Origin: Streptococcaceae bacterium
Lineage (GTDB): Bacteria; Bacillota; Bacilli; Lactobacillales; Streptococcaceae
Assembly: GCA_031285105.1 (NCBI GenBank)
Contig: JAITWV010000169.1
Coordinates: 1 to 25,197 of the forward strand
Reading direction: 5' to 3'
DNA length: 25,197 bases
The notes under the pieces are model-generated. The model made no database searches. It was not told the DNA's origin and saw only the letters and a program-made list of their open reading frames with translations. Positions 1,555 to 7,343 of this stretch are shown piece after piece (the first letter of the stretch is position 1; the number at the start of each line of letters is the position of its first letter). Both the position numbers and the translations under genes were made by a program.

Positions 1555-2594
1555 GTAATAAAGTTAAAAAAGTCATTGTCCCTGGTCAAACAATAAAGCT
1601 TTTGGATGGCGATGAAGTTTTTGTTGTGAATGTGTATGAAAATATTGCCACAATTATTACTAACGGTATTGGGAGAGTAATGCATCTAAAATCAAGAAAA
1701 TTGGTGCCTTACAATCCAAAAATAAAAACTATAGCTATTAAGCAAGGAGAAAAAATGGAGAAGAAAAACATTATTAAAATTGCAGTTGCTGGCGGAGTAG
1801 TACTTGTAGGCGGAATTATTGCTGCATTTACCTTTGTTGAAATGATTGATAACGGTCAAGTGGGTATTCGTTATTCAATCAATGGCGGCGTGCGTGATGA
1901 AGCATTAGGGCAAGGGGTGCATTTTGTAGGAATTGACAGAGTGACACAATTTCCAATCCACTTGCAATCTGTTCATGCAACAGGGTTAAATGTTTCAACT
2001 AGCGATGGTCGCTCAACAAACGTATCATTCCGCTATACATATCGTATTGACCCAACCAAAGCGAGTTTGATTTTTCGTGAGTTCGGTTCGTTACCCGTTG
2101 AAGATATTGAAGAAGGATGGATGACTGCTGAATTATTACGCGCTGCACGTCAAGTAATCTCGCAACATAATTTATTACAATTAGCTGGAGAAGAATCTGT
2201 CGCAATCCAAAATGAAATCAAAGCATTGTTTGAAGAATCAATTGCCCGCTTAGGTTTTGTTCTGGATAATTTAACACTTGGAGCACCACAACTAGACGAT
2301 GATACACAAGCGATGATTAATGGCATTATTCAAGCCGGACAAGCGCAAGAACGTGCACGATTAGAAGCAGAAACAGCTCGAATTAATGCCGATAGAGATG
2401 CCGATGTGGCTAGAACAAATGCCGATGCAGAAGCTTATGTCACTGAACGTAACGCTACAGCACAAGCACAAGCCAACAGAGAACTTGCCGAATCAATTAC
2501 ACCAGATTTAATTAGAATGGCAGAAGCTGAAGCACGAAAGTTACATGGTTGGGTGACAGTGAACGGTGCAGATGCGGTTGTTGTAGGTGATTAG
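1551..2594 (+). CDS. SPFH/band 7/prohibitin-domain membrane protein; second in-frame start at 1755 gives a 279-aa form
   Basis: TM segment IIKIAVAGGVVLVGGIIAAFTFV, then GQVGIRYSINGGVRDEALGQGVHF (SPFH N-terminus) and an Ala/Glu-rich C-terminal coiled coil. SD AAGGAG precedes ATG 1755. Confidence 0.85.
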   Translation: MSNKVKKVIVPGQTIKLLDGDEVFVVNVYENIATIITNGIGRVMHLKSRKLVPYNPKIKTIAIKQGEKMEKKNIIKIAVAGGVVLVGGIIAAFTFVEMIDNGQVGIRYSINGGVRDEALGQGVHFVGIDRVTQFPIHLQSVHATGLNVSTSDGRSTNVSFRYTYRIDPTKASLIFREFGSLPVEDIEEGWMTAELLRAARQVISQHNLLQLAGEESVAIQNEIKALFEESIARLGFVLDNLTLGAPQLDDDTQAMINGIIQAGQAQERARLEAETARINADRDADVARTNADAEAYVTERNATAQAQANRELAESITPDLIRMAEAEARKLHGWVTVNGADAVVVGD

Positions 2595-2922: not shown

Positions 2923-3063
2923 ATGCTAACTGAAATCATTAAAATATTTCTTGAAACGTGGGGTATTACAATAATCATTGCTGCAATAGCTCTTGTGATG
3001 GTATATGTAATAAAAAAATCGTTTAAAAAACAGGAGGGAGACGATGGCGAAAAAATTGAGTGA
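2923..3063 (+). CDS. small single-TM protein (46 aa), not in ORF track
   Basis: Sequence MLTEIIKIFLETWGITIIIAAIALVMVYVIKKSFKKQEGDDGEKIE. Its 3' end contains the SD of the next gene. Confidence 0.65.
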   Translation: MLTEIIKIFLETWGITIIIAAIALVMVYVIKKSFKKQEGDDGEKIE

Positions 3064-3442
3064 AATTGATCTAAAAAATTTGGAAGATCAATTTCGCAAT
3101 AAAAAAATTTGGAAAAATAATTTAGCTAGAATCGAGTTTTTTATACGAAAAAAAAATCCTGAAGCATCCGAAAATGAGATAAAAAAAATAATTGGAATGC
3201 ATAGTGGATTTGCATATTACACTAGACTTGTAAAAAATATCGAAGAAGCGTATGAAGAACTGCCTATGGATTTGAAAAAAATAGTTGATAAGTATTTTTG
3301 GGGTGAGTACCACTATTTGAACTGGAAAGAAATAGCAGACGTAGAAATCATTTCAGAATCAACTTCTTACAAACGTAGACGATATCCAATACTCGAAAAA
3401 CTAGCATACAAGAAAGGCGAGTTGTACGATGAGAATCACTAG
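3044..3442 (+). CDS. RinA/ArpU-like late transcriptional activator
   Basis: 132 aa with a sigma region-4-like C-terminal HTH (LPMDLKKIVDKYFW...WKEIADVEIISESTSYKRRRYPILEK), at the canonical position just before the packaging genes. Confidence 0.75.
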   Translation: MAKKLSEIDLKNLEDQFRNKKIWKNNLARIEFFIRKKNPEASENEIKKIIGMHSGFAYYTRLVKNIEEAYEELPMDLKKIVDKYFWGEYHYLNWKEIADVEIISESTSYKRRRYPILEKLAYKKGELYDENH

Positions 3443-3767
3443 ACCATGTAGGCAACCGCTCTGTAGCGACTTGACTGAAAAAACATACTGCGAAAATCAT
3501 GATGCGCACGATACTAGACACCGAAAAAAGCAGTATAACCAGCGGTGGCGACAAGAAAGCAAGCTGTTTTTGCTGCACAATCCATTGTGTGCCGATCCCT
3601 TTGGTTTACATGCTGCTGCAGGTGTCAGAGTGGTTGCGCGTGAGGTAGACCACAAAACCCCATGGAAAGGCAATACGCGGCTATTTTGGGAGCGGTCAAA
3701 CTGGCAATCATTATGCGAAAGCTGCCATTCAAAAAAGACAGCAAAATTTGACCGTCTGGAATACTAA
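3429..3767 (+). CDS. HNH endonuclease, HK97 gp74-like packaging accessory
   Basis: N-terminal PCRQPLC...YCENH zinc motif; YNQRWRQES; EVDHKTP...NWQSLCESCHSKKT HNH core; located upstream of terS. Confidence 0.92.
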   Translation: MRITRPCRQPLCSDLTEKTYCENHDAHDTRHRKKQYNQRWRQESKLFLLHNPLCADPFGLHAAAGVRVVAREVDHKTPWKGNTRLFWERSNWQSLCESCHSKKTAKFDRLEY

Positions 3768-3788: not shown

Positions 3789-3820
3789 AAAAAAACAAGG
3801 TCAACCGCCTTGTTTTTTTT
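3789..3820. terminator. bidirectional intrinsic terminator
   Basis: A7-CAAGG / loop TCAACCG / CCTTG-T8, lying between the convergent HNH gene (+) and the 412-aa gene (-). Confidence 0.85.
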
Positions 3821-3836
3821 GGCTTATATAATGCTG

Positions 3837-5075
3837 TTAAAAAAATGCCATTTGCTTGTCTTTTTTGCGTGTATAAATTTTGTGCTCTTTCGTTTGGTCC
3901 TGGTATTCTTTTTTAGTGATTTCACCAGCCCAATATTTTTCTAATAAAGCAACTTCAGGGCTTTTCACTTGTGGCGCTGGTTCGGTGGGTTTGGGCGGTT
4001 CTGGTTCGCCTGCAGGTGCAGAAAAATCAAATTTTTTTCTTTTTCTCTCTAAAAATTTTTCGTCGCTGATCCATTCTATTTCAATTTCATTGCTCCATTG
4101 TTTTTTGGTGATTTTTTTAATGCCTAAACTTTCCAAAGTCACAAGGTCATTTGTTGAAAAATTAAACTTTTTAGCGATGATTTCCTTTCCTGCATCGTCC
4201 TTTTTAATCATGATTTGATCAGCGTAACAAATATTTCTAGACTCTGGATCAAATGGGATTGCCTTCATGCTTTTTTGCGTCCGGCTTAAAATATAATAAG
4301 CCAATTTATTTTCAGGGTTGCGGTAAATTTTACCAACTTCAAAGAGGCCGCCAGCGTCAATGCTTTTATCAATTTCAGATTTTAAATGATCCGGGATAGG
4401 TAGCGCATCCGCATCAAGTTCTAAAAATTTAATTGTTTTAATAACGGCGTTCCTTGTTAGTTGACGGCCCCAGCACTTGCCACGAGGAGACCAGCGGAAA
4501 CCATTCTTTTTTATTTCTTGAATTTCTTCACGCTCGGGCTTTTCATCGTGATAGATTTCAATATAGCCGGGTGCATTCGCATCTTGTTTGATGCGTGTAT
4601 AGTTATATTTGATAGTGATGCCCTTTTCATCAAATCGGAACTCAGTACAAAACTTTTTTTGTTCGTTTAAAAATTCTTGATGCGCATCTGTTAATTTTTC
4701 AAGTTCTTTTTTGGTATTAGTAAAAAAATTATCGCGTTTGGTTTCGTGATCGATTGCGTAATTTTGCGCTGCATTTTGAACCTTTTCAAATTTCCTTGCT
4801 GGAAATTTTGCAGGACCAGCAACCGCCGCGCCGGGCATTGAATAAGCTTTCAGTTGAAAATTGAGAAAATAAGTCTTGTTTAAGTCGCTAAAAGCTAAAA
4901 AACGTTGATCAAGATAGTTGCGTTGTTTTTCGTTGTAAAATTCTTGTGGTGAAAAATGGTCAAAAAACAGGCGATCAAGAAAATAAAGTTGATTTTCAAA
5001 ATATGCCTCATCTTTTTGAAACATGCGATTATTATTCGTTGCCATCAAGGCCATTAAATCCATTTTATCTAACAT
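3837..5075 (-). CDS. multidomain hypothetical protein (412 aa); motifs resemble DUF3560-associated/polyvalent-type mobile-element proteins
   Basis: The protein is read from the reverse complement (CAT at 5088-5090 and 5073-5075, TTA at 3837-3839), so the track's + label is wrong. SD GGAGG 8 nt before ATG 5075 favours MLDK as the start. Motifs AGPAKFPARK, KKNGFRWSPRGKCW and FEVGKIY...SRTQKS. Confidence 0.85.
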   Translation of the reverse strand: MLDKMDLMALMATNNNRMFQKDEAYFENQLYFLDRLFFDHFSPQEFYNEKQRNYLDQRFLAFSDLNKTYFLNFQLKAYSMPGAAVAGPAKFPARKFEKVQNAAQNYAIDHETKRDNFFTNTKKELEKLTDAHQEFLNEQKKFCTEFRFDEKGITIKYNYTRIKQDANAPGYIEIYHDEKPEREEIQEIKKNGFRWSPRGKCWGRQLTRNAVIKTIKFLELDADALPIPDHLKSEIDKSIDAGGLFEVGKIYRNPENKLAYYILSRTQKSMKAIPFDPESRNICYADQIMIKKDDAGKEIIAKKFNFSTNDLVTLESLGIKKITKKQWSNEIEIEWISDEKFLERKRKKFDFSAPAGEPEPPKPTEPAPQVKSPEVALLEKYWAGEITKKEYQDQTKEHKIYTRKKDKQMAFF

Positions 5076-5096
5076 TTTCTTATCCTCCATTTTTTA

Positions 5097-5609
5097 TTAT
5101 GCTGCAGGTTGTAACGCCTGCAGCTGGTTAAATTCATTAATTGCGAATTGCATATAATGCGTTGGGTCGGTATCGCTTGGGATCATTTCATAATTGACGG
5201 CGGCGGTAATTAATTTTTGCATCAAGTCAAAAGCTGCTTCAATCGTTTCAACTTTTGGCGCTTCAGCTCGCACGCTTTCAACTTCAAGCGGGTCAAGATG
5301 CAATGATCCAATTTCAACAACTTGATAGTAGCAGCGACCGAACGGCCCGAGCATGAAGAATAGTTCGGATCCTTTTGAATAGGTGCCAGCGCTAAAAGCT
5401 TTCTTTTGTGACATGTAAACGCCACCAGCTGGCAAGAGTATCAAGTTAGCGCCACCGTATGCCTTGCCTGAAGCGTAAGAAGTTGGGTAACCCTTTTCTA
5501 AAATATCCAGGTAAACGGCTTCAATACACAAGTCTTTCATCTGATTCATTGCGATGCGCTTAACTTTTGGCGTGGTGTCTAATGTGGTTTGTAATTGTTG
5601 TTTTTTCAT
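5097..5609 (-). CDS. hypothetical protein (170 aa)
   Basis: SD GGAGG 9 nt before ATG 5609 (MKKQQLQTT). Ends a short distance upstream of the next gene's SD, an operon-like spacing. Confidence 0.8.
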   Translation of the reverse strand: MKKQQLQTTLDTTPKVKRIAMNQMKDLCIEAVYLDILEKGYPTSYASGKAYGGANLILLPAGGVYMSQKKAFSAGTYSKGSELFFMLGPFGRCYYQVVEIGSLHLDPLEVESVRAEAPKVETIEAAFDLMQKLITAAVNYEMIPSDTDPTHYMQFAINEFNQLQALQPAA

Positions 5610-5662: not shown

Positions 5663-5671
5663 TGGTATAAT
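5663..5671 (+). promoter_or_regulatory. extended -10 promoter (TGGTATAAT) for antisense RNA
   Basis: Perfect TGnTATAAT pointing into the 3' end of the minus-strand small ORF. No good -35 seen. Confidence 0.7.
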
Positions 5672-5677
5672 AAACAC

Positions 5678-5806
5678 AATAGGAAGGGGGGCGAACCCCC
5701 ACTATTAAGCGAACAATTTGGATAAGATCCAAGCAATTGATGCTTCAAGTAAAGCCGTTAGCATTAATTGACCTAAAGCGATGAGTTTGAGCCTCGTCGC
5801 TTTTTT
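5678..5806 (+). ncRNA. putative ~130-nt antisense RNA (type I antitoxin-like)
   Basis: Starts just after the extended -10, has a 5' hairpin GGGGG-CGAA-CCCCC (5687-5700), and ends in a terminator at 5775-5806. Fully complementary to the 3' part of ORF 5705..5854. Confidence 0.55.
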
Positions 5807-5854
5807 GCGTGCCTCCTTTCGTTTTTTCGCTTTTCCTATTCGTGTTTCCTGCAT
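5705..5854 (-). CDS. small basic/hydrophobic peptide (49 aa), type I toxin-like, not in ORF track
   Basis: SD AAGGGAGGTG 8 nt upstream of ATG 5854. Sequence MQETRIGKAKKRKEARKKATRLKLIALGQLMLTALLEASIAWILSKLFA: Lys/Arg-rich N-terminus and a C-terminal TM-length helix. Confidence 0.75.
   Translation of the reverse strand: MQETRIGKAKKRKEARKKATRLKLIALGQLMLTALLEASIAWILSKLFA
5775..5806 (+). terminator. intrinsic terminator of the putative antisense RNA
   Basis: 11-bp stem AAAGCGATGAG / CTCGTCGCTTT (one G-U pair), 7-nt loop, T6 tract at 5801-5806. Confidence 0.65.
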
Positions 5855-5882
5855 GTGCATCACCTCCCTTCTTTTCGTCCAC

Positions 5883-5912
5883 AGTTTAAAACCTATTTAG
5901 CTAAATTGTAAA
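5883..5912 (-). promoter_or_regulatory. candidate sigmaA promoter of the minus-strand cassette, with palindromic operator
   Basis: -35 TTTACA (5912-5907), 18-bp spacer, -10 TAAACT (5888-5883). Perfect 12-bp palindrome ATTTAGCTAAAT at 5895-5906 in the spacer. Confidence 0.4.
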
Positions 5913-5999
5913 AGCAAAACTAAAACAACTTTTTAAAACGTTTACATTTTTTGTTGCGCTATATAGATATAAAGTTATTAAGAATTTCTTAAGATGATT

Positions 6000-6480
6000 T
6001 CAACGAACCGACAACAAGACACCAAAGGTATAGACCTATACACGATGAACGGTAACGCTTGCAGCATGAAAGCAAGCGAACCAATACGCCGCCCAAAAGG
6101 CTTGAAGCGATGCAAGCAATCAAGCAAGGCGAACGAACACGCACCGCAGGCAGCGGGTGGCGTGTGACGTTTGAACGAATCGAAAAGCAATTTGAAAATT
6201 AAAAATTAAAATTTAAAATTGATTTTCAAAATTGAAAAAATGATTGATTTTAAAGGCTATATATTAGTGATGCGCAAGCCTTGCATCTGCATCAAGCGCC
6301 GGCATGAAAGCACACGAACCAACCAGCGACCAACGCGGGCACAGGATCCCAAGCCATTAACGCGCCGGCAAGGCACCAGCAGCGACACGACCGCGCAAGC
6401 ACTGGTAGCAGCTGCCAAGCATCAAGGCGCACGCAATGGATGCAAGCAAATCAAAATAAATTAAAACTGCTGCAAAAAAA
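6000..6480. repeat. noncoding GC-rich/T-poor blocks with direct and inverted repeats flanking an A-tract core
   Basis: 21-bp direct repeat at 6064-6084 / 6302-6322 (19/21 identical); GATGCAAGCAA(A)TCAA at 6109-6123 / 6439-6454; AT-rich core at 6190-6255. Confidence 0.6.
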
Positions 6481-6866: not shown

Positions 6867-7343
6867 ATGGGAGGTAGAAAAGCACAACCAACTGACTTGT
6901 TACTAGCTAAAGGAAAGAAGCATTTAACGAAAGAAGAAATTCAAGCTCGTAAAAATTCTGAAATCAAAATGCCAAAAATTAGTAAAGTAACAAACCCAAG
7001 CTATTTGAGCAGAAAACAAAAATTAAAATTTTCAACTATTTCAAAACAACTGATAGATTTAGATATTTTTGCACAACTAGATAGAGATCATTTGGCGATG
7101 TACGTTATCGCTCATGAGAAATATTTAGAAGCAACAAAGGCATTAGATGAGTTGGATATTATTAAAGACTTAGGCAATTACACCAAAATTCAGATTATCC
7201 AGGATAAGTTCTTTAAGCAGTGTAAAGGGTTAGCAAGTGATTTAGGGTTAAACATTACCTCACGATGCAAGCTTGTAATTCCTAAACCGCTAGAAAATCC
7301 GAATAAGTCTGAAGAAGAAGAATTGTTTGGAGACGATTTGTAA
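6867..7343 (+). CDS. terS: terminase small subunit, P27 family
   Basis: MGGRKAQP...GKKHLTKEEI N-terminus, LGLNITSRCKL C-terminal motif, SD AAGGAGGTG, TAATG overlap with terL. Confidence 0.92.
   Translation: MGGRKAQPTDLLLAKGKKHLTKEEIQARKNSEIKMPKISKVTNPSYLSRKQKLKFSTISKQLIDLDIFAQLDRDHLAMYVIAHEKYLEATKALDELDIIKDLGNYTKIQIIQDKFFKQCKGLASDLGLNITSRCKLVIPKPLENPNKSEEEELFGDDL

Follow-up and report, generated by a model that had tools for sequence, protein, structure and literature searches.

A small membrane-peptide gene and a predicted convergent antisense RNA at the head of an accessory operon in a phi105-like phage contig from termite gut

Results

Gene content of the locus

The stretch of DNA analysed here (the window) is a complete contig of 25.2 kb, the largest of a MAG that is 83% complete and derives from an uncultured termite-gut organism. 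Its genes include those for the small and the large terminase; the latter is about 48% identical to those of Geobacillus/Bacillus phi105-like phages. The terminase genes are followed by a long row of plus-strand genes at the position expected for head and tail genes, an assignment made by position only. To judge from this gene content, the window is phage DNA and belongs to a phi105-like cos phage or prophage. The GC content is 38.1% as compared with 34.8 ± 1.7% for the MAG, and by this measure membership of the contig in the MAG is not certain. One of the plus-strand phage genes (1551–2594) encodes a 347-residue SPFH/Band-7 protein (Pfam E-value 1e-20; phrog_200, ‘lipoprotein’).

Between the HNH endonuclease gene and terS lies a cassette of three minus-strand genes (Table 1). 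Their order is that of an operon: promoter, gene for a 49-residue peptide, gene for a 170-residue protein, gene for a 412-residue protein, bidirectional terminator. The candidate promoter would place the transcription start at about position 5876 and leave a 5′ untranslated region of about 22 nt. No other good promoter upstream of the peptide gene was seen when the sequence was read by eye.

The cassette was found in none of 80 terS-related phage loci, most of which have plus-strand genes only in that place, and thus looks like a self-contained accessory insert. A few of these loci contain different minus-strand inserts upstream of terS. The DNA of the locus had no match in phage records, in either the near or the distant search mode, and a search of 300 genomes from the same family retrieved just two 33-nt hits, which is chance level. 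Among sequencing runs, the locus was contained in one termite-gut DNA run and in no RNA run. Positions 5990–6480, between the cassette and terS, are non-coding and on the plus strand GC-richer and T-poor, with a 21-nt word occurring three times (6064, 6302 and 6434) in addition to other short repeats. This may be the cos or terminase-recognition region.

Table 1. Positions of the features discussed in the text. Positions are those of the window, except for the last two rows (contig C33 of the same MAG, positions of locus L095).
Feature	Position	Strand	Evidence and remarks
HNH endonuclease gene	3429–3767	+	left flank of cassette
Bidirectional terminator, ends HNH gene (+) and minus-strand operon	3789–3820	both	terminator scan
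412-aa gene, third in operon	3837–5075	−	ATG 5075, 8 nt after GGAGG; agrees with public gene call
170-aa gene, second in operon	5097–5609	−	SD context AAAAATGGAGG
Extended −10 element TGGTATAAT	5663–5671	+	motif scan; no usable −35
Predicted antisense RNA, about 129 nt	5678–5806	+	fold: four perfect stem-loops
Stem-loops of predicted antisense RNA	SL1 5678–5706; SL2 5717–5733; SL3 5734–5770; then terminator	+	
GC hairpin GGGGG(G)-CGAA-CCCCC	5686–5700	both	outer stem extends to 5678–5706
Intrinsic terminator	5775–5806	+	11-bp stem 5775–5785/5793–5803, one G.U, 7-nt loop, T6
49-aa peptide gene	5705–5854	−	SD, codon usage, public gene call
Shine–Dalgarno (SD) region AGAAGGGAGGTGA	5860–5872	−	GGAGG 8 nt before ATG at 5854
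Candidate sigma-70 promoter of peptide operon, TTTACA-18-TAAACT	5883–5912	−	consensus scan, 9/12, weak match
terS	starts at 6867	+	right flank of cassette
C33 toxin gene, 31 aa	1771–1866	−	Pfam Hol_Tox PF16935, E-value 5e-10
C33 antisense promoter TGTTATAAT	1673–1681	+	drives convergent RNA of about 95 nt

The 49-residue peptide

The ORF, its SD, the extended −10 element, the GC hairpin and the 11-bp stem followed by T6 had been described in an earlier note on this DNA, and all of them were recovered at the same positions. The ORF had been called unannotated there, which holds only in part as the 49-residue product is already present in a public protein collection as a gene-caller call.

Residues 1–23 have a net charge of +9, and the C-terminal half has a net charge of 0. 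Residues 24–44, approximately, form a hydrophobic stretch (Kyte–Doolittle mean 1.88) with a low hydrophobic moment, that is, a non-amphipathic one. This bears out the polybasic amino terminus and the C-terminal hydrophobic helix of the earlier description. With Q, T, E and S among its residues, the helix reaches only a moderate hydrophobicity. The +9 head is predicted to be cytoplasmic, with the C-terminal helix as anchor.

We found no homologue of the peptide other than the query itself, either in viral contigs or in a protein collection of 5.8 billion clusters, and the ESM Atlas search returned sub-threshold look-alikes only. By tblastn, the peptide retrieved only itself from 88 fetched loci and from the window's own genome, and the search for relatives in metagenome and genome contigs likewise returned only the query. 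There was no family match in Pfam, PHROG, NCBIfam or PADLOC. The lack of homologues among billions of proteins would agree with the alternative that only a small RNA on the plus strand is functional and the 49-codon ORF is untranslated, particularly as a highly structured RNA on the opposite strand could by itself impose an open frame. However, 13 of 15 positions of the SD region are complementary to the anti-SD consensus, which is that of a Bacillus subtilis-type 16S 3′ end, and the spacing is ideal. The codon-usage score of the ORF, 0.203 per codon, corresponds to the 22nd percentile among true in-frame windows of 49 codons and is attained by only 0.1% of off-frame or antisense windows, with both halves of the ORF behaving alike. 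The ORF also runs 48 nt past the predicted RNA. This makes an untranslated ORF improbable, and we consider it likely that the peptide is real, translated and tail-anchored in the membrane.

With fewer than 60 residues and one potential transmembrane helix, the peptide resembles type I toxins. The charged residues of such toxins are usually, though not universally, C-terminal, and the +9 cluster is N-terminal here. The C-terminal helix, which the earlier note had regarded as unusual, is indeed the reverse of the usual order (PMC6563280), but a cationic amino terminus has precedents in HokB and SprG1-44 (PMC8309996).

The downstream genes

The protein of 170 residues has one homologue, P0013 (211 aa, 43–48% identity). 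In its locus (L006:6001–7291), the gene for P0013 is located directly upstream of a RadC-family gene, within a row of small genes after which come genes for an FtsK/SpoIIIE translocase and an integrase. As this context is mobile-element-like, the family may be carried along with genes of an early or anti-restriction type. No peptide similar to that of the window is encoded upstream of P0013. The 170-residue protein had no plasmid match, no PDB relative and no family match in Pfam, PHROG, NCBIfam or PADLOC, and its structure models are unusable (Atlas pLDDT 0.40, AlphaFold 38.5). A resemblance to the N-terminal domain of ArdC was considered and dropped, Pfam giving no match to it even at E-values up to 10.

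The likely start of the 412-residue protein is ATG 5075, since the ATG at 5090 falls within the SD (AAAAATGGAGG). Only about 50 residues (roughly 161–219) have similarity to other proteins, namely to phage early proteins and to one DUF3560 (PF12083) protein. An anti-defence role of the operon is a guess.

Geometry of the predicted antisense RNA

Starting downstream of the extended −10 element, whose TATAAT (5666–5671) falls in the intergenic spacer, and ending at the intrinsic terminator, the predicted RNA would be convergent to the peptide gene. It would span codons 17–49, the stop codon and 27 nt of the 3′ untranslated region, giving an RNA–mRNA overlap of 129 nt, 102 nt of which are coding. 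The GC hairpin would be read on both strands: as the 5′ stem-loop of the predicted RNA on the plus strand, and on the minus strand as the 3′ hairpin of the peptide cistron, where it amounts to a weak terminator, with a tail poor in U. The plus-strand terminator (−14.1 kcal/mol) is among the best in the window and sits within codons 17–27 of the peptide; read on the minus strand, its stem is followed by just UUU. No match to the predicted RNA was found in Rfam at the gathering threshold, and none that was meaningful at E-values up to 10. By the family searches with peptide and RNA, membership in any named type I toxin or antitoxin family fails.

The start of the predicted RNA (5678) is 69 nt from the ATG of the 170-aa gene (5609), so that the 5′ end of the next gene is not overlapped. 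The same ATG is 76 nt beyond the minus-strand hairpin with its U-poor tail, in agreement with the earlier figure of about 75 nt. No convincing internal promoter was seen by eye between 5705 and 5610 on the minus strand. With a hairpin that has no good U-tract and no such promoter, transcriptional read-through from the peptide cistron into the 170-aa gene is plausible, as the earlier note had proposed.

Statistics of promoter, terminator and RNA structure

The motif TGNTATAAT occurs once in the window, at the extended −10 element, and about 1.3 occurrences are expected by chance. In the MAG, it is 5.8 times denser in intergenic than in intragenic DNA, compared with 1.3–2.7 times for control motifs, and the intergenic excess sits in sites facing a gene (86, versus 11–21 for controls). 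Thus, TGNTATAAT is a genuine promoter element of the MAG. Sites which do not face a gene, as is the case for 5663–5671, showed no clear MAG-wide enrichment over scrambled motifs. A terminator 50–250 nt past the motif was found at 12 of 217 sites (5.5%), which is the background rate, scrambled motifs giving 3.3–8.5%. There are about three canonical plus-strand terminators in the window; the other two are located at gene ends (3813 and 14992).

The predicted RNA is strongly folded. Its minimum free energy is −43.8 to −45.5 kcal/mol (z-score −4.6 to −5.0), and no dinucleotide shuffle was as good. The same interval read on the minus strand gave −36.6 kcal/mol (z-score −2.8). The plus strand is about 9 kcal/mol more stable because two G.U pairs turn into mismatches on the minus strand.

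The structure was further analysed by synonymous recoding. The peptide sequence was kept fixed while its codons were redrawn 1000 times from the phage's own codon usage. On the plus strand, one of the 1000 versions was as stable as the natural sequence (z-score −3.4), and on the minus strand 43 were (z-score −1.8). In a calibration on 100 windows taken as controls from genes of the phage itself, the scores were centred at 0 with a standard deviation of 1.1, and one window was at or below −3. This points to selection on the structure of the plus-strand RNA. By the same result, the codon choice of the peptide gene appears to be constrained by a structure that is at its best on the opposite strand. 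Synonymous recoding of a single sequence may help with other orphan candidates, where covariation analysis is precluded by a lack of homologues. Above chance, then, is the RNA structure; the pairing of promoter and terminator alone is not.

These data bear on the possibility that the peptide gene is real and the antisense signals are fortuitous, the hairpins serving the sense mRNA (stability, partial termination) with no discrete plus-strand RNA being made. About one TGNTATAAT per window arises by chance alone, this one is not accompanied by a −35 element, a terminator 50–250 nt further on is as common with scrambled motifs, and sites not facing genes are not clearly enriched. The minus strand is somewhat structured as well, both against shuffles and in the recoding analysis, where 4% of the versions were as stable. 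On the other hand, the plus strand gives the clearly stronger structure signal, T6 makes a terminator in the plus direction only, and motif, folded stretch and terminator are correctly ordered and spaced opposite one small gene. We therefore regard fortuitous signals as unlikely, and the plus-strand RNA as probably made, although with limited confidence.

A short terminated RNA is also leader-like, and the plus-strand promoter, leader and terminator might be a regulated read-through module comparable to lambda PR′-6S RNA-tR′, in which antitermination would feed the cos region and the late genes. The strand is shared with terS and all late genes, and a candidate late-gene regulator is present at 3044–3442 (phrog_36, annotated just as ‘transcriptional regulator’). 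Yet terS is 1.2 kb away from the promoter, which lies within the minus-strand insert; another plus-strand promoter-like site, at 6192–6219, is better placed; and such a cassette is mostly absent from terS-related phages. A read-through module is hence very improbable.

Discussion

Interpretation and possible mechanism

The best explanation, which we hold tentatively and with slightly less than even confidence, is that a cis-antisense RNA represses a small membrane-peptide gene in a manner similar to type I toxin–antitoxin systems, and that this pair heads an accessory operon of three genes. In favour of it are the layout, the plus-strand fold, the recoding result, the canonical terminator and the codon usage of the ORF. 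Counting against it are the orphan nature of the peptide, the missing −35 element, the background rate of promoter–terminator pairing, the reversed order of charge and helix, the open SD and the fact that the sole homologue of the 170-residue protein has no such peptide gene upstream.

In this mechanism, the RNA would be transcribed constitutively from about position 5678 and be stable, as we propose, because of protection by its 5′ stem-loop. Contact with the peptide mRNA would be made from loop to loop between mirrored hairpins, in codons 17–49 and in the 3′ hairpin. The duplex would then be cut by RNase III and the peptide mRNA would decay as a consequence. Because the 3′ hairpin of the peptide terminates poorly and the 170-aa gene is not preceded by a convincing promoter, such a cut would fall within the operon transcript and might reduce expression of the two downstream genes as well. 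Excess peptide would damage the membrane. This toxicity is the least secure step of the explanation, and we consider it doubtful. A gene for RNase III is present in all 20 relatives searched. The search of the window's own MAG (83% complete) did not find it, which is no indication of absence, as 20 of 20 relatives have the gene.

The antisense RNA could be real and the peptide not a toxin, the RNA then tuning or timing the accessory operon. In that case the peptide would simply be a small membrane protein of an ordinary kind, such as an anchor or an exclusion factor. Lambda OOP is a short RNA with its own promoter and terminator, is antisense to the 3′ end of the cII mRNA and causes RNase III-dependent cleavage of that mRNA. 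The predicted RNA would likewise be a short phage RNA with promoter and terminator opposite the 3′ end of a phage gene; the target of OOP, however, is a soluble regulator in a Gram-negative host, and OOP has no sequence relation to the RNA in the window. All evidence for the RNA is identical for the toxin and the non-toxin reading. The peptide gene is co-oriented and probably co-transcribed with two larger genes having the same style of strong SD, its own SD is exposed rather than sequestered, and the order of charge and helix is atypical among type I toxins (PMC6563280). Against this, a length below 60 residues, one membrane helix, a cationic end and a prophage setting are hallmarks of type I toxins (PMC6563280, PMC8309996). 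We think a non-toxic peptide under antisense control rather unlikely.

The earlier note had gone further and suggested that the RNA gates the downstream operon loosely like P1 c4/icd-ant. P1 c4 RNA is cut from the same transcript as its target and pairs in trans at the ribosome-binding region of the target. The likeness is that of a phage RNA possibly controlling a downstream operon, but the RNA predicted here is convergent. Trans control of the c4 type is not supported: the energies of RNA duplexes with the ribosome-binding regions of the peptide gene, the 412-aa gene and terS were within those of shuffled controls. The region of the 170-aa gene gave a z-score of −2.4, due solely to an A-rich stretch pairing with the U tail of the RNA. 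That the peptide founds a new type I toxin family of inverted polarity, and that the RNA also gates a cos-proximal and possibly anti-defence accessory operon by way of a cut in the polycistronic mRNA, is a long shot. If it were true, one small RNA would set both the level of a toxin and the expression of two ORFan proteins.

Comparison with known systems

The layout itself agrees, as the earlier note had pointed out, with type I toxin–antitoxin systems of Firmicutes, in which a small membrane-peptide gene in phage DNA is overlapped at its 3′ end by a convergent RNA (PMC6562991, PMC6563280). By comparison of the arrangement, yonT-yoyJ/SR6 of the Bacillus subtilis prophage SPbeta appears to be the closest precedent (PMC5848175). 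There, the prophage toxin gene yonT is the first on a polycistronic mRNA, and SR6, about 100 nt long and convergent, overlaps the toxin gene at its 3′ end; SR6 is transcribed from a promoter of its own, located downstream of the toxin ORF, and acts via RNase III-dependent mRNA decay, and the level of the downstream mRNA is unaffected (PMC5848175). A toxin gene heading an operon is thus not new in kind (PMC5848175).

The window shares with yonT/SR6 the prophage-type setting, a peptide gene that is the first of several co-oriented genes, and a convergent RNA, predicted in this case, that overlaps its 3′ end. SR6 extends over the 5′ end and the ribosome-binding site of the gene that follows; the predicted RNA would instead begin 69 nt from the ATG of the next gene and has no convincing complementarity to its ribosome-binding site. 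The overlap is longer (129 nt, 102 nt coding), and there is no demonstrated sequence relation. In YonT, the membrane helix comes first and a basic tail last. This order is reversed in the 49-residue peptide, with a basic head first and the helix last.

The pairs txpA/RatA of the skin element and bsrG/SR4 of SPbeta are likewise convergent with a 3′-end overlap and reside in prophage-like DNA (PMC6562991, PMC3834814). Their toxins are shorter than 60 residues with one membrane helix, and their antitoxin RNAs consist of several stem-loops, binding beginning at loops including that of the terminator (PMC6562991, PMC3834814). SR4 and bsrG mRNA pair loop to loop (PMC6562991). In contrast to the 49-aa peptide gene, which heads an operon, the txpA and bsrG toxin genes stand alone, and the bsrG mRNA partly sequesters its SD, whereas that of the peptide is predicted to be open in the mRNA fold. 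Rfam and Pfam searches gave no homology to either pair.

If real, the pair would join the many RNA-controlled membrane toxins borne by prophages with one further, unrelated peptide, and after yonT/SR6 it would be the second case in which such a pair heads a phage operon. The layout is a familiar one. The candidate is well formed but ordinary; it raises no new question.

A recognised type I pair in the same MAG

Another contig of this MAG (L095:1673–1990; contig C33 of genome G000) carries a canonical type I pair of the Hol-Tox/rli28 kind. The toxin mRNA matches Rfam family rli28 with 57 bits (threshold 45), and the antisense RNA shares a bidirectional terminator with it. Both RNAs are driven by TGNTATAAT-type promoters, and both came out among the 12 motif-plus-terminator units of the genome-wide scan. 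As the antisense RNA starts from TGTTATAAT, this type of promoter serves a recognised antitoxin RNA in the bin to which the window is assigned.

The two loci are alike in having a TGNTATAAT promoter and a short folded antisense RNA (predicted for the window) that ends in a terminator and is convergent to the gene of a small membrane peptide. The RNA of the window is the more strongly structured, with a z-score of about −5 versus −2.7 for the C33 antisense RNA. In the C33 toxin, the helix comes first and is followed by a KKK tail, whereas the helix of the window peptide comes last; the C33 toxin has a 5′ untranslated region of about 107 nt and an overlap of only about 40 nt, through the shared terminator. 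The C33 pair matches Pfam and Rfam families, and the peptide and RNA of the window match none.

A further small protein is encoded on contig C238 of the same MAG (L096:3706–3849, minus strand). It has 47 residues with two hydrophobic stretches, and its gene is preceded by an AGGAGG SD. The gene forms its own unit of about 186 nt with a TGTTATAAT promoter and a terminator.
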